The notes: a model not told the origin generated them from the letters alone. Positions 28,728 through 44,722 are shown, counted from the stretch's first letter. The stretch: DNA of 64,000 nucleotides from Escherichia coli (GCF_024298765.1 NZ_CP101210.1), one strand, 5' to 3'. Program-made: numbers and translations.

Positions 28728-29390
28728 ATGGCTTATCGCGACCAACCTTTAGGTGAACTGGCGCTCTCTATTCCTCGCGCTTCGGCTCTGTTTCGTAAAT
28801 ATGATATGGATTACTGCTGTGGCGGTAAGCAGACGCTGGCGCGCGCGGCGGCACGTAAAGAACTGGATGTTGACGTCATTGAAGCCGAACTGGCAAAGCT
28901 TGCTGAACAACCGATTGAGAAAGACTGGCGTAGCGCCCCGCTGGCAGAAATCATCGACCATATCATCGTGCGCTACCACGATCGCCATCGCGAGCAGCTG
29001 CCGGAGCTGATCCTGCAAGCGACTAAAGTCGAGCGCGTTCACGCCGACAAACCGAGCGTGCCAAAAGGGCTGACAAAATACCTGACTATGCTGCATGAAG
29101 AGCTTTCCAGCCACATGATGAAAGAAGAGCAGATCCTCTTCCCGATGATCAAACAAGGCATGGGCAGCCAGGCAATGGGGCCAATCAGCGTAATGGAAAG
29201 CGAGCACGATGAAGCGGGTGAACTGCTGGAAGTGATCAAACACACCACCAATAACGTCACACCGCCGCCAGAAGCCTGCACCACCTGGAAAGCGATGTAT
29301 AACGGTATCAATGAATTGATTGATGACCTGATGGATCACATTAGTCTGGAAAATAATGTACTGTTCCCGCGCGCGCTGGCGGGTGAGTGA
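28728..29390 (+). CDS. ytfE: Iron-sulfur cluster repair di-iron protein (RIC)
   Basis: 220 aa ORF; hemerythrin-like His/Glu-rich repeats; NsrR box upstream. Confidence 0.93.
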
Positions 29391-29403: not shown

Positions 29404-29434
29404 CGCACCTGGTTTACACAATCAGGTGCGTTTT
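29404..29434 (+). terminator. Rho-independent terminator after ytfE
   Basis: CGCACCTG-gtttacacaat-CAGGTGCG hairpin followed by TTTT. Confidence 0.65.
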
Positions 29435-29636
29435 CAAATGCTTTGAGTTATTCACCACTCCGGGACAATCTTTTGTATCTACTGAACTGGGAAAATTCAT
29501 TATTCAGCCAATAATAAGTTCCTTCAACGGTTACTAACTTATTTTTTTCATTAATATAATTACTTATTCATCGCTCCTGTATAAGCCAGAATAAAATCAC
29601 CCATTCCCTAGTTTTTACGTGTACATCCAGCTACCG

Positions 29637-30704
29637 CTACGCTTCCACCCACACCGACCCGCCATCATGGCGGTTCATCAGCGACCACAGCACATGGAAT
29701 TTCTCGCCTCTTTTATACTCCCCCTCCATTTTCCTGTCCGTCCATTCTGGCATCTGCTCTCCCTGCTCCAGTGTCACCGTCGCTTGTCTACCTTCTACAA
29801 AAATCGACCACTCCCCGCTATGAGGACAAGCTTCACCGCTAAAGGCCGCTATCCGCTGCCGGTCTGTAACATACTGCGCTTCGCGCTGTGGCCAGTTGTA
29901 CAACTCCTCCGGCATGCCCTGTGGGAAAAATCCCTCCGGCGGCACATTGATAAATCGGTTTGCCACCCGCCGTATACGTTTCCAATTGCATTTTGCCCAC
30001 GCCCCGCTTTCCCAGTAATATTCTTGTATCCCAGCCTCGTTGACATACTTCGTTCGTACCCGCCCCTGCCAAGCCTCGGGAATATGTTCACTCCGGTACA
30101 ACAGTTGGGCGCTGGCATCTGGGATATCCGGCAGATACAGGCCAGCCACCGTTACCGGGTCATCCTCACGCAGGTATACGCTACTATCCAGCTCATACAA
30201 CGGTAATTGCATCGGCAGGGCCAGCGGGCCGTGCAGACTTTCCTCATAATAATAAGTCAGTTCGCCGTCATACCAGTATCCGCCCGAGGTACGTCTGATT
30301 AAATTATTATAATGTGCACCTCGCCATTTCAGTCTGTCATACTGTTTTTGCGCGGCGAGTGACATCCAGTCCGACGGATAATCAATTAGTCCTTTCATAT
30401 CACTGCTAATATTGCCCCCGGATTGCAGTACCCGCAGGTCCCCCTGCTGTAGCTGAATAAAGTCATACTGTACCGACTTTAAAGTACTGCGGATATTGGG
30501 CAACACTCGCCCGCCCCAGACGACGTCAATCTGCTCGCACAGCGGACGACGGCGCACATCCAGCGGCATGGCCTTGCTCCACTCTGCCACCTGTCGCTCG
30601 CACAGCTCGACAAACTCCTGCCACCCCTCAAAACGACGCCGATAATATTCCGGCGACATTATTCTTTCCAGCAACCAGCACTCCTGTGGATGTAATATAG
30701 CCAC
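29637..30704 (-). CDS. Hypothetical Trp/Tyr-rich cytoplasmic protein (355 aa from GTG with AGGAG Shine-Dalgarno; ORF track gives 373 aa from ATG at 30758)
   Basis: Long ORF in the ytfE-cycA insertion; no signal peptide, no TM segment, no motif I recognise; 16 Trp by my count. Confidence 0.6.
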   Translation of the reverse strand: MAILHPQECWLLERIMSPEYYRRRFEGWQEFVELCERQVAEWSKAMPLDVRRRPLCEQIDVVWGGRVLPNIRSTLKSVQYDFIQLQQGDLRVLQSGGNISSDMKGLIDYPSDWMSLAAQKQYDRLKWRGAHYNNLIRRTSGGYWYDGELTYYYEESLHGPLALPMQLPLYELDSSVYLREDDPVTVAGLYLPDIPDASAQLLYRSEHIPEAWQGRVRTKYVNEAGIQEYYWESGAWAKCNWKRIRRVANRFINVPPEGFFPQGMPEELYNWPQREAQYVTDRQRIAAFSGEACPHSGEWSIFVEGRQATVTLEQGEQMPEWTDRKMEGEYKRGEKFHVLWSLMNRHDGGSVWVEA

Positions 30705-30958
30705 TTTATCTCCTGATTTATTAATTAATTGTCTATTGATACTTTTATTTCGGTACATAAATATTTGTTTGCAACTGAGACACAGCTATATACATATCCA
30801 CTTCATCTATCATCGGTACGCTGACCGTCAAAATAGACGCTGCGTTTATCGGCAGCGAAAGCGCCGAATGCCTGAAAACTGGCGGCATCAACATTAGGTT
30901 CACCGGATGGATTTTTCAGGACTTTGCCTGCCCAAAGGACAGAACGTCCATCGGTGAG

Positions 30959-31237
30959 TCAGGTATGCTGGCAATCCCCCTCATCATCGCAATCGAACTT
31001 ATCGGGATTAAAATCGGACAGTAACCGGGAATCTTGTTTATTGGCTAAATTGGCAATGCGCCAGAGGCGGGACAAATTAACGTCCGGCAGTTCGGAGAGG
31101 ATCTCATCTTTTTTCCCCTTCTGTTCGGCAACGTAAACAGTGCCTTTCTCCTGCTGGCGGTAATAAAAATCCGCGCCCCAGGAAGGTGAAATGGAGAGAG
31201 GTAATGCGGCGATTAATAACCAACTGCGCTTAACCAT
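30959..31237 (-). CDS. Hypothetical small secreted protein (signal peptide, acidic Cys-containing C-terminus)
   Basis: ORF 30959-31261; start taken at ATG giving MVKRSWLLIAALPLSISPSWGA signal peptide; C-terminus DCDDEGDCQHT. Confidence 0.5.
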   Translation of the reverse strand: MVKRSWLLIAALPLSISPSWGADFYYRQQEKGTVYVAEQKGKKDEILSELPDVNLSRLWRIANLANKQDSRLLSDFNPDKFDCDDEGDCQHT

Positions 31238-31371: not shown

Positions 31372-32775
31372 TTACTTCGCCATGCGTTTTTTACCAATAA
31401 ACAACCAGCCCAGCCCCAGCAAGATAAACCATAACGGGGTAACTATCAGCGCCTGGCGAGTGTCATCTTCCAGTGTCAGCAGCACGATCACGAACACAAA
31501 GAACGCCATACATACCCAGCACATCAGCTTACCGAGCGGCATCTTGTAGATTGATTTCTCATGCAGGTGCGGACGCTGTTTGCGATACACCAGGTACGAG
31601 CAAAGGATAATCGTCCAGACGAACATAAACAGGATCGCGGAAACCGTCGTGATCATCGTGAACGCACCAATCACGCTGGGATTCACATACAACATCACCA
31701 CGCCGCCGAGCAGACAGATGCAGGAGAAGGTCAGCCCTTTCGCGGGTACTGCGCGCTTAGAGAGTTTAGCGAACGCTTTCGGTGCCACACCTTCCTGCGC
31801 CAGACCAAACAGCATACGGCTGGTAGAGAAGACGCCACTGTTAGCGGAAGACGCCGCAGACGTCAGCACCACAAAGTTAATCACGCTTGCGGCAGCAGGC
31901 AGACCTACCAATACAAACAGTTCAACAAACGGGCTTTTCTCCGCGACCACCGAACTCCACGGCGTCACAGACATAATCACAATCAGCGCGAAGACGTAGA
32001 ACATAATGATACGGATCGGAATGGAGTTAATCGCGCGTGGCAGTGATTTCTCCGGATCTTTGGTTTCCGCAGCTGTTGTACCTACCAGCTCAATCCCCAC
32101 GAAAGCGAAAACCGCTATCTGGAATCCGGCAAAGAAGCCACTTAAACCTTTCGGGAACCAGCCGCCATCATTCCACAAATGCGTGAATGACGCTTCCACG
32201 CCAGTCGGTGACTGGAAGTGCATCATCACCATGATCAAACCAACGACAATCAGTGACACGATGGCGACAATTTTGATCATCGCAAACCAGAACTCCATCT
32301 CACCGAACATTTTTACCGTGGCGAGGTTTAGAACCAGTAACAGAATGATCACGGATAACGAAGCAACCCAGTCAGAAAGCCCAGGGAACCAGAATTGCGC
32401 ATATGCGGTAATGGCAACGACATCTGCCATCCCGGTTACTACCCAACAGAACCAGTAGGTCCAACCAGTAAAATACCCTGCCCACGGCCCCAGTAGATCG
32501 GAAGCGAAGTCACTAAAAGATTTGTATTCCAGATTCGAAAGCAGCAATTCCCCCATTGCTCGCATCACGAAAAAGAGCATAAAACCGATGATCATATAAA
32601 CGAAGATGATCGACGGTCCGGCAAGACTGATTGTTTTACCGGAACCCATAAACAGCCCCGTACCAATGGCCCCACCAATGGCAATAAGCTGGATATGTCG
32701 GTTTGTGAGATTGCGCCGTAGCGACTGTTCAGCCGGAGCCTGTTCTTCGGCAACGACTTTTACCTGATCTACCAT
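31372..32775 (-). CDS. cycA: D-serine/D-alanine/glycine:H+ symporter (APC family)
   Basis: 467 aa 12-TM ORF recognised as CycA (MVDQVKVVAEEQAPAEQSLRRNLTNRHIQLIAIGG...). Confidence 0.93.
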   Translation of the reverse strand: MVDQVKVVAEEQAPAEQSLRRNLTNRHIQLIAIGGAIGTGLFMGSGKTISLAGPSIIFVYMIIGFMLFFVMRAMGELLLSNLEYKSFSDFASDLLGPWAGYFTGWTYWFCWVVTGMADVVAITAYAQFWFPGLSDWVASLSVIILLLVLNLATVKMFGEMEFWFAMIKIVAIVSLIVVGLIMVMMHFQSPTGVEASFTHLWNDGGWFPKGLSGFFAGFQIAVFAFVGIELVGTTAAETKDPEKSLPRAINSIPIRIIMFYVFALIVIMSVTPWSSVVAEKSPFVELFVLVGLPAAASVINFVVLTSAASSANSGVFSTSRMLFGLAQEGVAPKAFAKLSKRAVPAKGLTFSCICLLGGVVMLYVNPSVIGAFTMITTVSAILFMFVWTIILCSYLVYRKQRPHLHEKSIYKMPLGKLMCWVCMAFFVFVIVLLTLEDDTRQALIVTPLWFILLGLGWLFIGKKRMAK

Positions 32776-33921: not shown

Positions 33922-34560
33922 ATGCCCGGGCGCTTTGAACTAAAACCAACCCTGGAGAAAGTCTGGCACGCGCCGGACAATTTTCGCTTCATGGACCCGC
34001 TGCCGCCGATGCATCGTCGGGGGATCATTATTGCCGCCATTGTATTGGTGGTCGGATTTCTGCTTCCATCTGATGATACGCCCAACGCGCCGGTGGTGAC
34101 GCGTGAAGCACAGTTAGATATTCAGTCGCAATCACAACCACCGACAGAAGAACAGCTGCGGGCGCAATTAGTTACGCCACAAAATGATCCTGATCAGGTG
34201 GCTCCGGTCGCTCCAGAACCAATACAGGAAGGCCAGCCAGAAGAACAGCCGCAAACCACCCAAACGCAACCATTCCAGTCAGATAGCGGAATTGATAATC
34301 AATGGCGCTCCTATCGTGTCGAACCTGGTAAAACGATGGCGCAACTGTTCCGCGACCACGGACTGCCCGCTACCGATGTCTATGCCATGGCGCAGGTAGA
34401 AGGCGCGGATAAGCCACTGAGTAATTTGCAAAACGGGCAGATGGTGAAAATCCGCCAGAACGCCAGCGGCGTGGTGACGGGCTTAACCATTGATACGGGG
34501 AATAATCAACAGGTCCTGTTTACCCGCCAGCCGGATGGCAGTTTTATTCGTGCGCGGTAG
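33922..34560 (+). CDS. ytfB: Cell-division-associated protein YtfB (OapA/LysM-like C-terminus)
   Basis: Start at [10 protein letters not shown] (212 aa); single TM segment and Pro/Gln-rich linker. Confidence 0.88.
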
Positions 34561-35191
34561 ATGAAGGGTCAACCAAAAGCCAGCTAAGGATTGTCTCTTT
34601 GATGACCTTACGTCTGGCTTCCAGTGCCTGGGGTGAAACCATACTGATGTGATAAACCAGGCCAAGCGTATGCTGGTTGATCAAATAATATCCCCCAAGC
34701 GCAGCAATATTAATATTCACCTGCAATGGGTCGATATCTGGCTTAAAAATATTGTGTTTCTTCCCTTCATCCAATAAGGATTCCATTAACTGCAAGTGCG
34801 CATGGTTAATTTCTAAGAGACGCTGTGATTTTGCATAATGCACACCTTTACTTTGATTTTCACTATGCACAATTTTTAAAAACCAGGGATTAGAAATATA
34901 ATAATCCCATGTAAAATCGATTATTTTCTCAATGGCTTTCTGTGGCGGAAGATCTGAGAAATCAAGGGCCTTTTCTTTTTGTCGAATATCGTTCCAGGTA
35001 TATTCCAGTACTTCGATAAATAAATTTTCTTTATTACCAAAGTGGTGATAAACCGTCTGTTTACTGCACCCCGCGGCCTTGACGATATTATCGACTCTGG
35101 CCCCTTCGTAACCATATTCGGCAAATTCATTAACCGCGCATAACAGCAGCTTTTCTTTCAGGCTCTGTACGTTGCTGGTATCAAGATACAT
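34544..35191 (-). CDS. TetR/AcrR-family transcriptional regulator
   Basis: HTH region [44 protein letters not shown]; start taken at [11 protein letters not shown]-rich; divergent from the downstream operon. Confidence 0.8.
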
Positions 35192-35313
35192 AACGCTTCC
35201 CCACGACCTCTTCGTGGTGACTATCATAACCTGATTTGATTTCAGCTTCAGAAAAAAGGGCAAAAACTTGTACTTTCATCAGGTTATCAAATGTCCTGTG
35301 ATCGCCATCGCAT

Positions 35314-35335
35314 ATCAACCAACTAGATGGTTGAT
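35314..35335. promoter_or_regulatory. Candidate TetR operator (inverted repeat ATCAACCA-actaga-TGGTTGAT)
   Basis: Perfect 8-bp arms in the divergent intergenic region between the TetR gene and the SDR gene. Confidence 0.35.
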
Positions 35336-35403
35336 CTTTTTATCCTCCAGTCGCAAGCTAATCATCACTAAGGAAACAAAATTCAAAAAAAGAGAGCTAT
35401 TGT

Positions 35404-36195
35404 ATGAAATCCACTCGTCCTGTTGCCGTGATTACCGGAGCCGCACGTGGTATTGGAAAGGGCTGTGCGCTGGAGCTTGCGCGTGGCGGATTTAATCTGC
35501 TGATTAATGATCGTCCGGATACCGATAGCGTAGAAAAATTACATGCCACACAACAAGAATGTCTGGCGGAAGGCGTGGAAGTGATTTGCTTCCCTGCTGA
35601 TGTTGGCGATCTCTCCCTGCATGAAGAGATGCTCGACGCAGCGCAAAACCAGTGGGGACGTCTGGACTGCCTGCTCAACAACGCAGGCATTTCAGTGAAA
35701 AAACGCGGTGATCTTCTCGACCTCGAACCAGACAGCTTCGACCAAAATATTGCCATTAACACCCGCGCACCGTTCTTCCTCGCTCAGGCATTCAGTAAGC
35801 GCTTACTGGCACAGCCGAAACCGGAAGCAGAACTGCCGCACCGCTCGATTATTTTCGTCAGTTCCATCAACGCCATCATGCTGGCGATGAATCGCGGCGA
35901 ATATACCATTGCCAAAACTGCCGTCTCTGCCGCTGCTCGTCTGTTTGCTGCTCGCCTTTGTAATGAACAAATTGGCGTTTATGAAGTGCGTCCTGGTCTC
36001 ATCAAAACCGATATGACTATTCCGGCAACGGCCTATTACGACGAACTGATTGCCAAAGGTCTGGTGCCGTGGGGACGTTGGGGTTATCCGGCTGATATTG
36101 CTTCCACTGTCCGCGCGATGGCGGAAGGTAAACTGATTTACACCTGTGGTCAGGCGGTCGCCATCGACGGCGGCTTAAGTATGCCGCGCTTCTGA
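35404..36195 (+). CDS. Short-chain dehydrogenase/reductase (SDR) family oxidoreductase
   Basis: 263 aa; TGAARGIG cofactor motif near the N-terminus. Confidence 0.85.
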   Translation: MKSTRPVAVITGAARGIGKGCALELARGGFNLLINDRPDTDSVEKLHATQQECLAEGVEVICFPADVGDLSLHEEMLDAAQNQWGRLDCLLNNAGISVKKRGDLLDLEPDSFDQNIAINTRAPFFLAQAFSKRLLAQPKPEAELPHRSIIFVSSINAIMLAMNRGEYTIAKTAVSAAARLFAARLCNEQIGVYEVRPGLIKTDMTIPATAYYDELIAKGLVPWGRWGYPADIASTVRAMAEGKLIYTCGQAVAIDGGLSMPRF

Positions 36196-36204
36196 GGCTG
36201 AATC

Positions 36205-37047
36205 ATGAGAGATCTGTTACAACGCCCGGATTTATTCAGTATCAATACCGCGACACTGGGCTATAAAACGCCGCTGCCCGCCATTATTGATGCCTGCGCC
36301 GCACGCGGTATTGGCGCCATTGCCCCCTGGCGCAGGGAGTTGCAGGGTGAAGATCTCCAGCAAATCGCCCGCCAGCTTGCTGCCAGTAACATAAACGTTT
36401 CCGGTTTGTGCCGTAGCACCTACTACACCGCACCGACGCTGGCGGAGCGCAAACTGGCGATTGACGATAACCGCCGGGCGCTGGACGACGCCGCTGTACT
36501 GAACGCCGCCTGTTATATGCAGGTGGTTGGCGGTCTGCCAATGGGAACAAAAGATCTGTATGAAGCGCGGGAACAAGTGAAACAAGGGATTCGCCAGTTA
36601 CTGCCACATTCGAAAGAGGTCGGCGTGCCGATTGCGCTGGAGCCGCTACACCCGATGACCGCAGCCGATCGTTCCTGTTTGTGCACGTTACGTCAGGCGC
36701 TGGACTGGTGTGATGAACTCGATCCCGATGGCGAATTTGGCCTCGGCGTGGCGGTAGATGTCTACCATGTCTGGTGGGACCCGGATCTCGCCAGTCAGAT
36801 CCTGCGTGCCGGAAAACGCATCCTCGCGTTTCATGTTTCCGACTGGTTAGTGCCGACCACCGATCTGGTCAATGACCGTGGAATGCCGGGAGATGGTGTC
36901 ATCAATATTCCGTCAATTCGTCGGCTGGTTGAAAACGCCGGATTTAATGGCGCTATTGAACTGGAAATATTCTCACCGTACTGGTGGCAGAAAGATATTA
37001 ACAGCACGCTGGATATTAGCGTCGATCGCATCGCACATTATTGTTAA
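36205..37047 (+). CDS. Sugar phosphate isomerase/epimerase (xylose-isomerase-like TIM barrel)
   Basis: 280 aa; family assigned from overall resemblance only; 9-nt gap to SDR gene. Confidence 0.7.
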   Translation: MRDLLQRPDLFSINTATLGYKTPLPAIIDACAARGIGAIAPWRRELQGEDLQQIARQLAASNINVSGLCRSTYYTAPTLAERKLAIDDNRRALDDAAVLNAACYMQVVGGLPMGTKDLYEAREQVKQGIRQLLPHSKEVGVPIALEPLHPMTAADRSCLCTLRQALDWCDELDPDGEFGLGVAVDVYHVWWDPDLASQILRAGKRILAFHVSDWLVPTTDLVNDRGMPGDGVINIPSIRRLVENAGFNGAIELEIFSPYWWQKDINSTLDISVDRIAHYC

Positions 37048-37056
37048 GGAATAATC

Positions 37057-37833
37057 ATGAGTGACCAACCCGTTCTGTTCAGCAGAGCGGCGGCTTCTTG
37101 CCGCCTGACATTGAACCGTGAAGATAAATGTCATGCTATTAATGAAGAAATGATCGAATCTCTCGACCATTATTTAAATGAAATTGAAAACGACACCACA
37201 TTACGATTAGTCGAATTAACGGCAACCGGCGATAAATTCTTTTGTGCGGGCGGCGATATTAAATCGTGGTCGGCCTATTCGCCATTAGATATGGGCAGAA
37301 AATGGATTAAACGCGGTAACGAGGTTTTTAATCGCCTGCGCAACTTACCCCAATTAACCGTTGCGAATCTCAACGGTCATACCATCGGTGGCGGTATTGA
37401 ACTTGCCTTGTGCTGCGATATTCGTATCGCTCGCCCCGGCGCGAAATTCTCTAACCCGGAAGTGATGCTCGGCATGGTGCCTGGCTGGATGGGCATTGAA
37501 CGCGTGCTTAATCAGGTTGGCCCGGTGGTCGGTCGCCAGATGCTGATGCTGGGTAAACGCCTGACGGCGCAGGAAGCTCAGGTGGCGAATTTAATTGATG
37601 AAGTGGTAGAAAAAGAACAGGTGGAAAGCTGGATGGCGAACCAGTTAGCGCAGCTGGAAAAATGTGGTCCGGTGGCACTGGCACATATTAAGCAACTGAT
37701 TCTGGCGCTGGAAAATAAACACGCCGATTACTCCCACCAGTTACTGGCTGGATTAATGTCCGCCACTCAGGATTGCCAACAGGCGACGCACGCATTTGCC
37801 GAAAAAGCCGGCGTGAGCTTCCACAATCAATAA
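37057..37833 (+). CDS. Enoyl-CoA hydratase/isomerase (crotonase) family protein
   Basis: 258 aa; crotonase-fold motifs (FCAGGDIK, GHTIGGGIELAL). Confidence 0.85.
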   Translation: MSDQPVLFSRAAASCRLTLNREDKCHAINEEMIESLDHYLNEIENDTTLRLVELTATGDKFFCAGGDIKSWSAYSPLDMGRKWIKRGNEVFNRLRNLPQLTVANLNGHTIGGGIELALCCDIRIARPGAKFSNPEVMLGMVPGWMGIERVLNQVGPVVGRQMLMLGKRLTAQEAQVANLIDEVVEKEQVESWMANQLAQLEKCGPVALAHIKQLILALENKHADYSHQLLAGLMSATQDCQQATHAFAEKAGVSFHNQ

Positions 37834-37842
37834 GGAAATTGT

Positions 37843-39384
37843 ATGCGTAAGTTATCAACCGCCGAGACACTGGCGGCGCAAATTCAGGACGGCGCAACCA
37901 TTGCCATTAGCGGCAACGGCGGCGGCATGGTGGAAGCTGACCATATTCTGGCCGCCATTGAAGCGCGCTTTCTGCAAACCGGACACCCGCGCGATCTGAC
38001 ATTAATCCACTCGCTGGGTATTGGCGATCGCGACAGCAAAGGCACTAACCGTTTTGCTCACGCCGAAATGCTCAAACGCATTATTGCCGGACATTTTACC
38101 TGGTCGCCCAAGATGCAGGAACTGGTGAAAAGCAATGCTATTGAAGCCTACTGTTTCCCTGGTGGCGTAATTCAGGCACTGCTGCGGGAGATCGGTGCCG
38201 GACGTCCGGGGCTTTTTACCCACGTTGGGCTGGGATCGTTTGTTGATCCACGCAATGGTGGCGGTAAGTCGAATGAATGCACGACCGACGACCTGGTAGA
38301 ACTGATTGAAATCGACGGTGAAACCAAACTCCGCTATCGCCCTTTCAAAGTGGACTACGCGATTTTGCGCGGCACCTATGCCGATCCGCGTGGCAACGTT
38401 AGCCTCGAAGAAGAAGCGATTGATATGGATAGCTATTCGATGGCGCTGGCAGCACACAACAGTGGCGGCAAAGTGTTTGTACAGGTGCGCGATGTACTGG
38501 AAGCTGGCGCCATTGAACCTCGCAAGGTCAAGCTACCGGGGATTCTGGTCGATGGTATCGTTGAACACCGCGAACAACCGCAAACCTATCTTGGCGGTTA
38601 CGACCTGACCATCAGCGGTCAGCATCGCCGTCTAAGTTCTAACGACGCTATTGAACTGGTTAGTCATCCGGTGCGTCGCCTGATTGCCCGTCGGGCAGCG
38701 CGGGAACTGGCGGCAGGTGCTTCAACCAACTTTGGCTTTGGTATTCCCGGCGGTATTCCTGGGGTTGCACTGCGCGAAGGCGTGCCTTATCAAAGTTTGT
38801 GGCTGAGTGTAGAACAGGGTGTACATAACGGCATGATGCTGGATGATGCTCTGTTCGGCTGCGCCCGTAACGCCGATGCCATTATTCCATCACTCGATCA
38901 ATTCGAATTCTACAGTGGCGGCGGTATCGATATCACCTTCCTCGGCATGGGAGAGATGGATCGGTACGGTAACGTCAACGTATCCCATCTCAATGGCAAT
39001 CTCATTGGCCCCGGCGGCTTCCTCGAAATTGCGCAAAACGCCCGTAAAGTGGTGTTCTGCGGTACGTTCGACGCTAAAGGCAGCAAGATTGATGTAACGC
39101 CTGATGGCCTGCATATCGCCCAGTCAGGTCAAATCCCCAAACTGGTTACCCAGGTGGAAAAAATTACTTTTAGCGCCGCATACGCACAGCAAAGCAGTCA
39201 GGAAGTGCTGTATATCACCGAACGTGCGGTATTCCAGTTAACGGCAGAAGGCGTTGAATTAATTGAGATCGCCCCTGGCGTAGAGATTGACCGCGACATT
39301 CTGCCGTATATGGCCTTCCGTCCGATTATCAGGCACCCACGCCTGATGGAAAGTAGCCTGTTTACGCCAATGGAGGATGCATGA
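37843..39384 (+). CDS. Family I CoA-transferase (fused alpha/beta; propionate/acetate CoA-transferase-like)
   Basis: 513 aa; assigned by resemblance to YdiF/Pct-type CoA transferases. Confidence 0.75.
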   Translation: MRKLSTAETLAAQIQDGATIAISGNGGGMVEADHILAAIEARFLQTGHPRDLTLIHSLGIGDRDSKGTNRFAHAEMLKRIIAGHFTWSPKMQELVKSNAIEAYCFPGGVIQALLREIGAGRPGLFTHVGLGSFVDPRNGGGKSNECTTDDLVELIEIDGETKLRYRPFKVDYAILRGTYADPRGNVSLEEEAIDMDSYSMALAAHNSGGKVFVQVRDVLEAGAIEPRKVKLPGILVDGIVEHREQPQTYLGGYDLTISGQHRRLSSNDAIELVSHPVRRLIARRAARELAAGASTNFGFGIPGGIPGVALREGVPYQSLWLSVEQGVHNGMMLDDALFGCARNADAIIPSLDQFEFYSGGGIDITFLGMGEMDRYGNVNVSHLNGNLIGPGGFLEIAQNARKVVFCGTFDAKGSKIDVTPDGLHIAQSGQIPKLVTQVEKITFSAAYAQQSSQEVLYITERAVFQLTAEGVELIEIAPGVEIDRDILPYMAFRPIIRHPRLMESSLFTPMEDA

Positions 39385-41453
39385 GTCAGCTTGATGAGGC
39401 CATCCTTGATGCACTGACACACGTTACTTTCCCAAAGGGTTTTGCACAGGCAGAACCCGCATGGGTTGTCACGGTAGACGGTGTTGATTACCCACTCTGG
39501 AAAACAGATGCCCTGGTAGTCGGCAGTGGTGCAGCCGGGCTACGTGCAGCTGTGGAACTTAAACGCCGCCAGCAAAATGTGTTAATCGCCACCGCCGGGT
39601 TATATATGGGGACATCGGCATGTTCTGGCTCTGATAAACAAACACTGTTTACCGCCGCTACCGCGGGCAACGGCGACAACTTCGCCAAACTGGCAGAGGC
39701 ACTGGCGAGCGGTGGGGCGATGGATCACGACACCGCTTATGTCGAAGCGGTAGGTTCTCTGCACACTCTTGGCGGGTTGCAATATCTTGGTCTGGAATTA
39801 CCGGAAGATCGCTATGGCGCGATTCTTCGTTATCAAACCGACCATGACGAAGCCGGGCGTGCAACCTCGTGTGGGCCGCGTACCTCAAGGTTAATGGTGA
39901 AAGTGCTGCTGGAAGAAGTACAGCGTCTTGCTATCCCAATGTTGACCAGTGCAACAGTGATTAAACTGCTGCATCAGCGTGACGAAAACGGTGAAGACCG
40001 TGTGGCGGGGGCAATCCTCGCGACCGGTCATCGCGCCCATAACCCATGGGGGCTGGCAATTGTGACTGCGCCCAATGTGGTACTGGCAACAGGAGGGCCT
40101 GGCGAGCTTTATCGCGACAGTGTGTATCCACACAAATGTTTCGGCTCGCTGGGGCTGGCGCTGGAGGAAGGTCTGACGCTAACCAATCTGACTGAAAGCC
40201 AGTTTGGTATCGGCACACCGCGCAGCACGTTTCCGTGGAATTTGTCCGGCACCTATGTGCAGGTGATCCCGTATATCTATTCCGTGGATGCCGAGGGCAA
40301 CGAGTATAACTTCCTCGCGGATTACTATCGCACCACCCAAGAGCTGGCTTCAAACATTTTCCGTAAAGGCTATCAGTGGCCGTTCCACGCCACGCGGGTA
40401 ATGGATTTTGGCTCCAGCTTGTTAGATATGGCGGTGGCGCAAGAGCAGCAACATGGTCGCCAGGTGTTTATGGATTTCAATCGCAATCCTGAAGTGGTGC
40501 CGGGTGACCTGCCCTTCTCATTAGATCGACTGGACGACGACGTTCGCGCGTATCTGGAAAATAACGACGCTCTGGCACCATCGCCCATCGAACGACTGCA
40601 ACGAATGAATCCGCTGTCTATCTCGCTGTATAAGATGCACGGTTACGATCTCACCACGCAGCCATTGCAGTTTGCCATGAATAATCAGCATATGAATGGC
40701 GGCATTGAAGTGGATATCTGGGGACAAACATCTCTGCCCGGTTGTTTTGCTGTGGGGGAAGTTGCTGGCACACACGGCGTCACCCGACCTGGCGGTGCGG
40801 CATTGAATGCCGGGCAGGTTTTTGCTGTTCGTCTGGCACGTTTTATTGGTTGCACGCAAAAGCGGAATATTGATGGAGATATAGCACAGCTGGCAGCTCC
40901 GGCACTGGCTTCTATAAGAGAGATCATTACTCAGGCGCACGATAACGGAACCGGGATGCCGTTGTCGGTTGTGAGGGAAAAAATTCAGGCACGAATGTCT
41001 GACCATGCGGGATTTATTTGTCATGCCGATAAAGTCCGACGCGCCACTCGTGATGCCCTGCTATTGAGTGAATTTGTGCAACGGCATGGATTGGCAATCA
41101 AACATGTGGGTGAAGTTGCCGAGCTGTTTATGTGGCGGCATATGGCGCTGACTTCTGCCGCGGTATTAACACAATTAACGCATTATATTGATGCTGGTGG
41201 TGGTAGCCGTGGGGCGCGTATGGTTATAGATCCACAAGGCAAATGCCTACCACAAACTCGTCGCGGCGCAAAAGAAGAATGGCGTTTTCGCTCTGAACTC
41301 GCTGAAGACAAAAATCACAAATTAACAATTCAATATTCGCAAGGTTCTTTTATTACCGAAGTAAAGTCTTTACGTATTCAACCGTGTATTAACGGTATTT
41401 ACTTTGAAAAAAACTGGCCAGACTTTTTAAAGGGAGACATTTACACACAATAA
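39381..41453 (+). CDS. FAD-dependent oxidoreductase (fumarate reductase/succinate dehydrogenase flavoprotein-like)
   Basis: 690 aa; dinucleotide-binding motif VVGSGAAGLRAAVEL; ATGA overlap with the upstream CoA-transferase. Confidence 0.75.
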   Translation: MSQLDEAILDALTHVTFPKGFAQAEPAWVVTVDGVDYPLWKTDALVVGSGAAGLRAAVELKRRQQNVLIATAGLYMGTSACSGSDKQTLFTAATAGNGDNFAKLAEALASGGAMDHDTAYVEAVGSLHTLGGLQYLGLELPEDRYGAILRYQTDHDEAGRATSCGPRTSRLMVKVLLEEVQRLAIPMLTSATVIKLLHQRDENGEDRVAGAILATGHRAHNPWGLAIVTAPNVVLATGGPGELYRDSVYPHKCFGSLGLALEEGLTLTNLTESQFGIGTPRSTFPWNLSGTYVQVIPYIYSVDAEGNEYNFLADYYRTTQELASNIFRKGYQWPFHATRVMDFGSSLLDMAVAQEQQHGRQVFMDFNRNPEVVPGDLPFSLDRLDDDVRAYLENNDALAPSPIERLQRMNPLSISLYKMHGYDLTTQPLQFAMNNQHMNGGIEVDIWGQTSLPGCFAVGEVAGTHGVTRPGGAALNAGQVFAVRLARFIGCTQKRNIDGDIAQLAAPALASIREIITQAHDNGTGMPLSVVREKIQARMSDHAGFICHADKVRRATRDALLLSEFVQRHGLAIKHVGEVAELFMWRHMALTSAAVLTQLTHYIDAGGGSRGARMVIDPQGKCLPQTRRGAKEEWRFRSELAEDKNHKLTIQYSQGSFITEVKSLRIQPCINGIYFEKNWPDFLKGDIYTQ

Positions 41454-41545
41454 TTTCCAATATTTCCTCTGTACCTGATTTTTATTGCCTATTACATGGA
41501 AATACCAACAACCAGGGTTTATTAATATAATTAAAAGGTTTAAAA

Positions 41546-42823
41546 ATGAATAAAATAAAGAATTATCGATGGTATATGATTGCCCTCGTATGCTTTATCA
41601 CTGTAATCAATTATCTGGACAGAACGGCGTTAGGTATTGCGGCTCCAACGATTATGGAGACAACCGGAATAACCAAAGAACAATATTCATGGATTGTCAG
41701 TGCATTCCAGTTGGCCTATACATTAGGGCAACCGGTAATGGGCTTCTTTATTGATACCGTGGGTCTGAAGTTAAGTTTTGCGATATGTGCCGCAATTTGG
41801 GGCCTGGCGACAATGGGCCATGCACTAACCGGAACGTGGTCTGGTCTGGCATTTATGCGCGCCCTGATGGGTTTCAGCGAAGCGTCGGCAATTCCGGCGG
41901 GTGTAAAAACCGCATCAACATGGTTCCCGGCAAAAGAGCGTGGCGTGGCGACAGGTGTTTTCAATATGGGCACCTCACTCGGCGCGATGCTTGCTCCACC
42001 GTTGATTGCCTGGTGCATTATGTTTCATAGCTGGCAATTTGCGTTTATTGTTTCAGGTAGCCTTGCTTTGCTCGCGGCTTTATTTTGGTTCTTTTGTTAT
42101 AAAGATCCGAAAGATGCCAAACGCCTTTCTGATGAAGAGCGCCACTATATTGAATCAGGACAAGAACAGCATCTTAAAACAGATAAGAAAGAAAAAACAT
42201 CAATCAAGCATATCCTCAGCCAACGTAATTTCTGGGGGATTGGCATCGCGCGTTTTCTCGCAGACCCGGCATGGGGAACCATTAACTTCTGGGTGCCGAT
42301 TTTCTTCGTCGAAACGCTGCATTTTAGCCTGAAAGAAATTGCCATGTTCGTCTGGCTGCCTTTCCTGCTGGGCGATCTCGGCTGTTTAGCCAGTGGTTTT
42401 GTCGCGAAGTTCTTCCACGATCGCGGCGTGAGTTTAATTAACTCACGAAGAATTACCTTCACTATTGCAGCCGTCATTATGATGACGATTGGCCTGGTGA
42501 GTATTGTCGAAAATCCCTACATTGCCGTATTACTGATTAGTATTGGCGCGTTCTCGCATCAATGCCTTTCTACTGTAGCAGCAACTCTGGGTGGCGATCT
42601 GTTCAAAAAAGACGAAGTAGCTACCGCAGTGGGTATGGCAGGAGCCTGTGCGTGGAGCGGTCAGTTGATTTTCAACCTGTTCATCGGGGCATTCGTTCAC
42701 ATTATCGGCTTCGCGCCGTTCTTTATTGCCCTGGCTTTCTTTGACATTATTGGCGCCATTGCGCTGTGGATGCTTATCAAAGTTAAAGACGAAGAACTAC
42801 AAGTACAGTTAGCGACAAGCTAA
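41546..42823 (+). CDS. MFS transporter (anion:cation symporter family, hexuronate/glucarate-transporter-like)
   Basis: 425 aa 12-TM ORF; N-terminus NYLDRTALGIAAP typical of ExuT/GudP-like carriers. Confidence 0.82.
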   Translation: MNKIKNYRWYMIALVCFITVINYLDRTALGIAAPTIMETTGITKEQYSWIVSAFQLAYTLGQPVMGFFIDTVGLKLSFAICAAIWGLATMGHALTGTWSGLAFMRALMGFSEASAIPAGVKTASTWFPAKERGVATGVFNMGTSLGAMLAPPLIAWCIMFHSWQFAFIVSGSLALLAALFWFFCYKDPKDAKRLSDEERHYIESGQEQHLKTDKKEKTSIKHILSQRNFWGIGIARFLADPAWGTINFWVPIFFVETLHFSLKEIAMFVWLPFLLGDLGCLASGFVAKFFHDRGVSLINSRRITFTIAAVIMMTIGLVSIVENPYIAVLLISIGAFSHQCLSTVAATLGGDLFKKDEVATAVGMAGACAWSGQLIFNLFIGAFVHIIGFAPFFIALAFFDIIGAIALWMLIKVKDEELQVQLATS

Positions 42824-42960: not shown

Positions 42961-44228
42961 CTAAATTGCCCCCCTGAATGCCTCTGCCATTAACTCTTGC
43001 TCACGACCAGGTAATCGAAGACGCTCGGCAATGATTCGCCACTGACTGACAATCCCTCTAAAATTAGCAATAATGTCATCTGCTTCTGTCAAACCAAGTC
43101 GAAAATACTCCGCAACTTCTCGAGCTAATTCCAAATCAAGTGCATTATCATTTCTGTAATATTGAGTTTTAGACCGTCAGACCTGGCAACAGGATTCAAA
43201 TCATATGCCTCAGAAAGCCGCCAACCTTTTCCCGGTATCAAGATATATCCATGATTACGTAAATGGTCATCGGTATTAGAAACAAGAATATTAAAAACAA
43301 TCCTGGACCAGAGTTCCTTAAGGTCAGTATTAGTCTGCGCTCCATGTCTGATAAGAACATCTGCTAATTCCAGATAACTCACACCTGTAGAGGCATCTTC
43401 ACCATCCTGATGCCTGGTTAGTGTCATAGCCGAAGCAAAATGCAGACGCCTTCCCGCATTAGTGCGGTCAAAACGACGAACCATAAAACAATGGTAATTG
43501 CTGGCAAATTTATGCGCCTGAGCAGGTGCAACATTCAGTCCACAGCCAACAGCAAGTGCATTAACGACCATTTCCCATCCACCAACATCATACTCATCTT
43601 TTACACTGGGAAATTTAGCGATGTAGAGATGCCCAGCTTCATCAACAACACTGGCTTTCGGACGTGCCCCCCCTAATGATCCCCCCGGAGCGATTAGCAT
43701 TCTTAACCATTTTTGCCCCATTAGCTCTTTATTATCAGGATCTTCTTCAATTGCCCGGCTAGCCCTTTCCAGACTCGCTATTTCGGTAAATGGTGGGGCT
43801 GCAACATCAATGCGATTATCAAGAAACTCTCCAGCGTCTTCACGTTTGTATCGAAGAGCCCCAACCCGATAAAGATCATGAACACCTAGTAGATAATCAG
43901 ACTCATAAAGGTGGGAGTCTTTATCACATAACCCGTCTCGAATATCCCTCTCAAAACGACGCTTCATTAGCATACGCCCCCAACGATCCGGGCAGGAATC
44001 ACTAAATGCACCAAATTTATCCTTTGGAGGAATTGGGTACTGTGCTCCCTCATACAACATTATTTCAGGATCTAACTGAATGAAATTAAGTGAAGGATCT
44101 GCAAGCGCCTTTTTATCGTACTCAAACTCAAATATCTCACGCGTCCGAGTGCGGCGACTGTGTAAATAACCAATCCGCTCCGGACCATCCAGGCCTTCCC
44201 AATCCGCATACACTCCGATTAATGCCAT
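42961..44228 (-). pseudogene. HipA-family serine/threonine kinase toxin, frameshifted (367-aa ORF plus ~56 codons continuing in another frame)
   Basis: HipA motifs (APGGSLGGARPK, DDHLRNHG, AYDLNP); ORF stops at 43125 but frame continues to stop at 42961 after a 1-nt shift in an A run near 43151-43153. Confidence 0.7.
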
Positions 44229-44230
44229 AA

Positions 44231-44722
44231 TTAATTTCCTTTTAACGGTTTTTTTATCGGTTTTAATAGTGCTGCAAGAGAGGTTGATGTTTCTCCTGTA
44301 ATAGATGGCGTCGAGCCTTCTGCCAGTGCTGTTAAATCCGTGGTGAGATGACCTTCTTTCTCGTGCCTCATCTGCAATGAGGCTGTCTGAGAACCTTCTT
44401 CATTCTTACTTGATGCACGAGAAAGCCCTCTTTTTTTAATCAAACGGGAATCCTGGAGCTGACGCCCTAAGTCGTCTTCAGCTGCAAGCTTATTTAAATC
44501 CGTTTCCAGGCCCAAAACCTGCATCACAGACAAATATGCCCCTATCGTGACCCCTGCACTTCCTGACTCCAGAGAGCGCAATGTTATTGGCGACATCCCA
44601 GCACGTTCAGCAACTTGCTTTGCGGTAAGCCTGCGTCGTAAACGAGCAAGTTTCAGCCGCTCACCAAATTCACTAAGCATCTGATTCGTATAAGGGAGTA
44701 ACGGTGCTGTTTTTTTACCCAT
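44231..44722 (-). CDS. HipB-like XRE-family HTH antitoxin with long Ser/Thr-rich C-terminal extension
   Basis: 163 aa; [26 protein letters not shown]; stop 2 nt before hipA-like start. Confidence 0.75.

Follow-up and report, generated by a model that had tools for sequence, protein, structure and literature searches.

Type VI secretion system (T6SS) toxins that degrade nicotinamide adenine dinucleotide (NADases) are countered by unrelated families of immunity proteins, each of which occludes the active site and inserts a basic residue, and full protection of a strain from a non-self NADase can come from an orphan immunity protein (Hagan et al., 2023, PMC10539506). The nearest known NADase pairs are Tse6-Tsi6 of Pseudomonas aeruginosa, Tne2-Tni2 of P. 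protegens, and Rhs1CT-RhsI1 of Serratia marcescens with the orphan 2280Db10. We analyzed a stretch of 64,000 nucleotides of the Escherichia coli chromosome, from nrdD to ula (GCF_024298765.1, NZ_CP101210.1; hereafter, the window), and describe here the gene for the tryptophan-rich protein WP_001317586.1 (29637..30704, minus strand), which is located in a ~2-kb accessory islet between ytfE (28728-29390, plus strand) and cycA (31372-32775, minus strand). By comparing its genomic contexts, we propose, with a probability of roughly 0.8, that WP_001317586.1 is an orphan immunity protein of a T6SS effector-immunity pair.

The protein is unrelated to Tsi6, Tni2 and RhsI1 in both sequence and fold, having no PDB match, and it is about 2-4 times larger than these NADase immunity proteins. 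The effector that accompanies its homologs also differs from the Tse6, Tne2 and Rhs1 toxins, as it is linked to VgrG, possesses its own conserved N-terminal domain and is not fused to PAAR or Rhs; compared with the Tne1-4 and TNT toxins, it has no detectable sequence similarity, and its NADase activity is predicted. Similar in gene position are TsiV/DUF3396 (PF11876; PA0821, PDB 7DRG) and TaeI (NF041834), which are likewise encoded downstream of VgrG-linked cargo effectors and have a comparable size (282-398 amino acids). A C-terminal module of the WP_001317586.1 family or its distant relatives recurs at the end of the TaeI model and in one TsiV-family protein, whereas the main body of WP_001317586.1 (residues 1-280) has no similarity to them. 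The cognate toxins of TsiV proteins are nucleases and do not consume NAD+. TaeI is the immunity protein to TafE of Acinetobacter baumannii, and according to PMC9973263 its cognate toxin is likewise a nuclease. With TssA/ImpA/VasJ, the sole likeness is the association with T6SS clusters, as the ImpA_N domain is absent from the 46 aligned family members.

The orphan immunity arrays of the Bacteroidales acquired interbacterial defence systems and of the Serratia Rhs1 locus, in so far as they are cited in PMC10539506, resemble the present locus in that immunity is encoded without a toxin. Also as in known orphan immunity genes, a short remnant of the toxin gene's 3' end lies upstream, and the carriers are a minority among the strains of a gut species. 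In contrast to the Bacteroidales and Serratia orphans, WP_001317586.1 is encoded by a single gene at the housekeeping ytfE-cycA site, far from T6SS, Rhs and vgrG loci and outside any recognisable mobile element. Judging from sequence comparisons, WP_001317586.1 appears to lie outside the described immunity families Tsi6, Tni2, RhsI1, TsiV and TaeI, and its effector partner outside the described Tne sequence families. A limited search of the published literature found no description of the effector or the immunity family. We regard the protein as representing a new, uncharacterised family of an already familiar type of system.

The assignment is carried by the order of genes in T6SS clusters. 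In every homolog context examined, a member of one effector family, complete or reduced to a 3' fragment, is encoded directly upstream of the WP_001317586.1 homolog and in the same direction. The order in Klebsiella pneumoniae is TssK-TssL-TagL-VgrG, the 483-amino-acid effector, the homolog, proteins of 123 and 379 amino acids, and TssM. The cluster of E. coli DETEC-P881 encodes TagL-Hcp-TssH-VgrG, an intact 487-amino-acid effector, a 355-amino-acid homolog, a 126-amino-acid protein, PAAR, a 379-amino-acid protein, TssM and TssA. E. coli GPEC1186 (locus L012) possesses the same cluster (ClpV-VgrG-effector-355 amino acids-126 amino acids-PAAR-379 amino acids-TssM-TssA), in which the effector gene is split by an IS21 element. 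In the Enterobacter cloacae complex, VgrG and a 481-amino-acid effector are followed by two to three tandem homolog paralogs that are 74-93% identical, and another Enterobacter T6SS locus encodes a 207-amino-acid C-terminal effector fragment, a homolog and TssE. A metagenome contig encodes VgrG, a 488-amino-acid effector and a homolog, then a 123-amino-acid C-terminal effector fragment and a second homolog. Even a distant 319-amino-acid relative, retrieved by the exhaustive profile search, is encoded directly behind a 472-amino-acid effector homolog. The order of vgrG, a ~480-amino-acid cargo and the homolog, combined with repeats of C-terminal fragments and tandem copies, is thus the signature of an effector-immunity pair; tandem paralogs are typical of immunity arrays. 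In the window, the last 63 nucleotides of the effector gene are directly upstream of the WP_001317586.1 gene, and the real partner of the protein appears, from this arrangement, to be the T6SS effector.

Two details of these clusters concern other genes. In GPEC1186 the insertion comprises istA/istB and leaves open reading frames (ORFs) of 200 and 290 amino acids (L012 5279-8873). The 123-126-amino-acid protein encoded 3' of the immunity gene in Klebsiella (locus L006, 9183-9554) and E. coli (L012 10055-10435) has a signal peptide, and a 74-amino-acid fragment of it is found 3' of the Salmonella orphan (L010 9076-9300). It may be an immunity protein to a neighbouring periplasmic effector, as genes for PAAR and the 379-amino-acid protein follow it. 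The 126-amino-acid gene was not carried over into the window.

The window copy of the gene originates from such a cluster. A 1,244-bp block (29564-30807, minus strand) matches the T6SS cluster of GPEC1186 with 96.9% identity over 1,245 nucleotides, from codon -20 of the effector gene to the start of the next gene. At its upstream end the block begins with the 3' scar of the cognate effector gene (30745..30807, minus strand; 63 nucleotides), which consists of the last 20 codons, encoding DEVDMYIAVSQLQTNIYVPK, and a TAA stop codon (30747-30745). A tblastn search with the 483-amino-acid Klebsiella effector aligned to 30807-30748 with 70% identity over 20 amino acids (E = 2e-4), and an E. coli effector fragment with an intact end (P0091) terminates in DEVDMYIGVPQLQTNIYVPK. 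The scar stop codon is separated from the GTG start codon of the WP_001317586.1 gene by a 40-nucleotide spacer (30705..30744, minus strand) that contains AGGAG (30714-30710); the equivalent spacer in the Klebsiella locus L006 has 39 nucleotides. On the other side of the gene, 73 nucleotides (29564..29636, minus strand) moved along from the T6SS cluster, and the blastn match breaks off at L012 10055, immediately ahead of the start of the next gene in the cluster, which encodes the 126-amino-acid signal-peptide protein.

The boundaries of the block are formed by unrelated DNA. Between the block and the 3' flank of ytfE is an AT-rich stretch of 152 bp (29412..29563), for which comparison with L012, L006 and an alternative DKNYY islet (L013) gave no match beyond chance. 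Microhomology was sought at this left junction and no clean crossover was definable; neither an integrase gene nor an insertion sequence is present in the ytfE-cycA islet. On the cycA side, a recombination junction at 30807/30808 parts the block from a truncated DKNYY-domain gene (30808..31237, minus strand), which retains the 5' 143 codons, including the signal peptide MVKRSWLLIAALPLSISPSWG, and is annotated as a pseudogene by the Prokaryotic Genome Annotation Pipeline (PGAP). The truncated ORF is 92.9% identical to intact 387-amino-acid DKNYY genes of other E. coli, where an alternative islet between ytfE and cycA (L013 1249-3930) comprises the intact DKNYY gene and a paralog encoding a DKNYY-like protein of 494 amino acids. 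Among 5,426 complete E. coli genomes, the set used for all counts given here, the DKNYY 5' region was found in ~627 (at least 90% identity and at least 80% query coverage). The T6SS-derived block thus seems to have replaced most of an older DKNYY islet. The first-pass annotation, made from the window sequence, had suggested that the tryptophan-rich protein may pair functionally with the adjacent secreted protein; this neighbour is the unrelated truncated DKNYY pseudogene on the far side of the junction, and the suggestion does not hold.

The distribution of the two partners in E. coli is strongly unequal. The block with its gene was found in 359 of the 5,426 genomes (~6.5%), among them strain HS as well as O26 and O111 strains, and 355 of these carriers possess the full ytfE-cycA islet. 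The body of the effector gene was found in two genomes only, GPEC1186 (split by IS21) and DETEC-P881 (intact, 487 amino acids). Given these counts, the putative immunity gene for WP_001317586.1 is an orphan. The 1,981-bp islet is 100% identical in strain 104, which is not one of the two genomes with the effector body, and in many avian and human isolates. At least 80% of the block is kept in 358 of the 359 carriers, with the gene given as a coding sequence, not as a pseudogene, among the annotations listed, and 327 carriers have it at 99% identity or more. An intact copy without the effector, preceded by the same short effector scar, is also present in Salmonella salamae. In K. pneumoniae the effector itself is abundant: two of its sequences are present on no fewer than 1,000 contigs apiece.

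The ORF described in the first-pass annotation is present in the window (29637-30758, minus strand), and its composition was borne out by translation: it contains 16 Trp residues, i.e. 4.3% of 373 amino acids or 4.5% of the 355-amino-acid form, and its Tyr and Arg residues number 21-22 and 30-32, respectively. Of the 31 window ORFs with at least 250 amino acids, none has as high a Trp fraction as this one, and the enrichment over the window baseline of 1.8% has a binomial P(≥16) of ~8e-4. Nine of the 16 Trp residues are kept in at least 42 of the 46 aligned homologs, which identifies the Trp richness as a family trait and not as noise. The choice of GTG at 30704, instead of ATG at 30758, also proved correct. 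The GTG codon (30704-30702) is preceded by the Shine-Dalgarno sequence AGGAG (30714-30710) with a 5-nucleotide spacer, it is the RefSeq/PGAP start of WP_001317586.1, and the N-terminus MA(I/V)LHPQEC that begins at this codon is common to all 46 aligned homologs, with M1, A2, L4, H5, P6 and E8 invariant. The ATG codon falls within what is left of the 3' end of the upstream effector gene and belongs to a different reading frame. The gene therefore has 355 codons and a stop codon at 29637-29639, and its product is 355 amino acids long. The cytoplasmic location proposed earlier is in agreement with the hydropathy scan, as neither a signal peptide nor a transmembrane segment was found and no segment is hydrophobic (the highest Kyte-Doolittle mean over 19 residues is 0.87).

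The ratio of nonsynonymous to synonymous substitution rates (dN/dS) indicates a real gene under purifying selection. It is 0.06-0.08 in comparison with the Klebsiella and Salmonella orthologs. Within E. coli, the orphan allele compared with the T6SS-linked one gives 0.14 and a pair of orphan alleles gives 0.25, where these values lean on ~23-29 substitutions per comparison and the orphan alleles are mostly at least 99% identical. Both orphan alleles compared (window 30704-30702; L014 6104) start with GTG, whereas the T6SS-linked allele (L012 8915) starts with ATG, and this change possibly lowers the expression of the orphan.

The statement that the protein carries no recognisable motif also stood up. 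Searches of Pfam, NCBIfam, PADLOC, PHROGs and PDB sequences gave no match to WP_001317586.1, either as a single sequence or as a profile of 46 sequences; in PADLOC, no family was found at E ≤ 1, and no known anti-phage defence model was matched. The AlphaFold2 model has two domains and a predicted local distance difference test (pLDDT) score of 90, and comparison of this model with the PDB revealed no relative by fold. In sequence and fold alike, no ADP-ribosylhydrolase of the Tri1 type or macro domain was detected, and the same holds for carbohydrate-binding and lectin domains. The family includes homologs with 71-74% identity in K. pneumoniae and Salmonella and with 35-39% identity in Enterobacter, Pantoea and Scandinavium, and the exhaustive profile search returned 173 cluster representatives. 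In NCBI and JGI, many homologs from the latter three genera bear the name 'type VI secretion protein ImpA' or 'VasJ' (P0008-P0047; L002-L004, L012, L019). We considered this identity and rejected it, since none of the 46 family members matches ImpA_N (PF06812), or any other Pfam family, at E ≤ 0.1, and authentic TssA proteins are encoded elsewhere in the same clusters. The ImpA/VasJ name is a propagated misannotation.

At its C-terminus (residues ~279-353), WP_001317586.1 possesses a small module of ~50-70 amino acids with the pattern SGxxCPxxGxW...MP...W. In distant relatives this module aligns with the final ~50 positions of the TaeI model in NCBIfam (NF041834), and it is also appended to P0201, a TsiV/DUF3396 immunity protein encoded behind a VRR-NUC effector. 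Prompted by P0201, homology to TsiV/DUF3396 was considered and rejected, as the last ~70 residues alone are shared, and the remainder of P0201 resembles TsiV/PA0821 and is not related to WP_001317586.1. The module thus recurs among T6SS immunity proteins of the cytoplasm, for which it may serve as an accessory domain that is mobile, or it may be a scar left by recombination. It occurs in the window protein, P0124, P0139, P0201 and locus L018 (6001-7197), and in the distant relative P0124 it is present three times (SG[E/Q]xCPxxGxW ... G[E/D]xMP ... W). Another unusual protein is P0160 (444 amino acids), in which ~260 immunity-like N-terminal residues are fused to the effector toxin domain (LYRVLD, WRRGFAAW, WEG, LEGGAIQ); it may be a genuine fusion of the two or result from a frameshift in an array that consists of an immunity gene followed by an orphan C-terminal fragment.

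The effectors form a family of stand-alone, VgrG-linked cargo proteins with a fixed two-domain architecture and a length of ~460-490 amino acids, found in Enterobacterales and in genera such as Vogesella, Chromobacterium, Pseudogulbenkiania, Luteimonas and Pseudomonas. The N-terminal part contains one strongly hydrophobic segment and the motif 'TGTVISMIP..DQ.CDVRD' ('TG...IP...D.RD'), and one homolog is labelled 'Pre-toxin TG domain-containing' in UniRef; sequence searches of Pfam, NCBIfam and the PDB gave no match for the effector. A polymorphic effector with swappable toxins was considered as well and rejected, since the C-terminal domain is the same in 116 of 120 N-terminal homologs. This domain, of ~200 amino acids, is predicted by one medium-confidence model to adopt a TNT/Tne-like fold. 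It corresponds to about residues 290-487 of WP_001606041.1 and to residues 276-483 of the Klebsiella effector. The five best fold matches of the model are the Serratia Rhs1-CT NAD(P)+ glycohydrolase (6XTD, 9.4), Tne2 (6B12, 8.9), Tse6 (4ZV4, 6.3) and two fungal TNT-type NADases (6YGE, 6.2; 8R15, 6.0), and the matches below them are much weaker and mostly comprise ADP-ribosyltransferase and RES toxins. The invariant motifs of the toxin domain (YR, WNxNGE, WEGxAxxQ, LEGGxxQ) may fit an NAD+-binding cleft. From the fold, the cognate toxin is predicted to be an NAD(P)+ glycohydrolase, an assignment that we consider somewhat better than an even guess. As the fold is that of NAD+-utilising toxins, the target would be cytoplasmic, and the lack of a signal peptide and transmembrane segment in the immunity protein fits a toxin acting in the cytoplasm, as a matter of consistency only.

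Taken together, these observations suggest the following scenario. In the intact system of E. coli DETEC-P881, K. pneumoniae and the E. cloacae complex, vgrG is followed by the gene of the ~480-amino-acid cargo effector and then by the putative immunity gene, and the immunity protein would bind the toxin domain in the cytoplasm and block its active site. A 1.24-kb piece of such a cluster (63 nucleotides of the effector end, the gene, and 73 nucleotides) would then have entered the ytfE-cycA site, displacing most of the DKNYY islet, so that the strain would keep the antidote without the toxin. The orphan would most likely protect its host against T6SS attack by Enterobacteriaceae that carry the effector.

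Among the other explanations, the most serious concerns the toxin and not the gene: WP_001317586.1 could be immunity to an ADP-ribosyltransferase with a protein or RNA target, and might reverse the modification as Tri1 does. The fold is common to both toxin classes; however, the top five fold matches are all NADases. Features of a hydrolase or macro domain are absent from the model of the immunity protein. We regard this explanation as unlikely. Less probable still is that the gene is a functionless relic, i.e. a recombination passenger that is unexpressed, unselected in E. coli and decaying. Such a relic would be at home between the effector scar and the truncated DKNYY pseudogene, both of which are debris, and the weakening of the start from ATG to GTG, the weak promoter-like matches and the identity of at least 99% in 327 of the 359 carriers, which agrees with recent spread more than with long maintenance, point in the same direction. 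Decay nevertheless fits less well with retention of most of the block, with an undisrupted coding sequence, by nearly all carriers, with the dN/dS of 0.25 between the two orphan alleles, with the preserved Shine-Dalgarno sequence and with the second intact orphan, behind the same scar, in Salmonella salamae.

Two further explanations would give the protein another role. The database names ImpA and VasJ on homologs from Enterobacter, Pantoea and other genera would make it a T6SS accessory, either a TssA/ImpA-like component or an adaptor or chaperone of the effector, next to which the gene is always found and the hydrophobic segment of which might need a chaperone. Against this, no member of the family has ImpA_N or another Pfam domain, the clusters have genuine TssA genes at other positions, and the gene is downstream of the effector gene, whereas known T6SS adaptor genes are located upstream of their effectors. 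Moreover, tandem paralogs and 357 E. coli genomes without the effector would make no sense for a chaperone, and we consider an accessory role very improbable. Hardly credible is a carbohydrate-binding protein or another partner of the secreted DKNYY protein, as might be supposed from the high Trp and Tyr content and the physical adjacency in the window: the two ORFs have different sources and were joined at the recombination junction, what remains of the DKNYY ORF is a truncated pseudogene, DKNYY genes are never found beside the homologs of other genera, and no carbohydrate-binding domain or fold was found. Thus, of the two functions offered by the first-pass annotation, an immunity-type protein of a polymorphic toxin system gains support from the gene neighbourhood and the orphan distribution, whereas carbohydrate binding finds none in domains or fold.

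Several observations weigh against the proposal of an orphan immunity protein to a T6SS NADase. The effector family is not polymorphic, with one type of C-terminal domain in the 116 of 120 homologs mentioned above, and the protein, with 355 amino acids and two domains, is far larger than the known NADase immunity proteins. Toxin binding and neutralisation are proposed solely from the position of the gene. No sequence link connects the toxin with the Tne1-4, TNT or ADP-ribosyltransferase families, and the NADase assignment would stand or fall with the single medium-confidence model. Selection within E. coli is estimated from the small numbers of substitutions given above. A scan for promoters and terminators near the orphan gene gave weak consensus matches only, none of them convincing, and was uninformative; with GTG in the orphan alleles in place of the ATG of the T6SS-linked allele, expression of the orphan is predicted and no more. 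Finally, the Klebsiella and E. coli toxin domains are 75% identical and the immunity proteins 74% identical, values that make protection across species uncertain.

It can be speculated that WP_001317586.1 and its relatives are a new family of immunity proteins, large, with two domains and without structural precedent, directed at a new subgroup of NADases delivered by VgrG (a further 'Tne' group), and that the orphan gives cross-species protection against the very common effector version of K. pneumoniae and Enterobacter; as a whole, this combination is possible but doubtful. Within it, the invariant MAILHPQEC peptide, with His5, could be the basic plug of the NADase active site. If the combination were true, the orphan would be a determinant of the survival of E. 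coli beside Klebsiella in the gut.

Irrespective of this speculation, a putative function is given to a 'hypothetical protein' of ~6.5% of complete E. coli genomes, and the widespread ImpA/VasJ annotation in Enterobacter and Pantoea is corrected. The candidate pair is very common in K. pneumoniae, and neither partner is represented in Pfam, NCBIfam or PDB sequences. The effector is common in Klebsiella, whereas E. coli mostly holds the antidote alone; if the orphan protects against the T6SS of Klebsiella or Enterobacter, this would be a case of acquired interbacterial defence among Enterobacteriaceae of clinical importance. The confident model of the immunity protein is notable for structural biology in view of its size and a fold without PDB match. 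Effector-immunity pairs and orphan immunity genes are well established as kinds, and the result thus extends current knowledge rather than overturns it.

Other features of the window are unrelated to the islet. A frameshifted pseudogene of a HipA-family type II toxin (42961-44228, minus strand), with an upstream helix-turn-helix partner (44231-44722, minus strand) according to the strain 104 annotation, is located between an accessory metabolic block and rplI. This accessory block (34544-42823), beside ytfB, includes genes for a TetR/AcrR regulator, a 3-ketoacyl-acyl carrier protein reductase, a sugar-phosphate isomerase, an enoyl-coenzyme A (CoA) hydratase, a CoA transferase, a flavin adenine dinucleotide oxidoreductase and a major facilitator superfamily transporter. 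This block seems to differ from strain to strain: CFSAN061770 (L013) has, at the corresponding position, a TetR gene that is a partial pseudogene beside an InsQ/TnpB-family gene.

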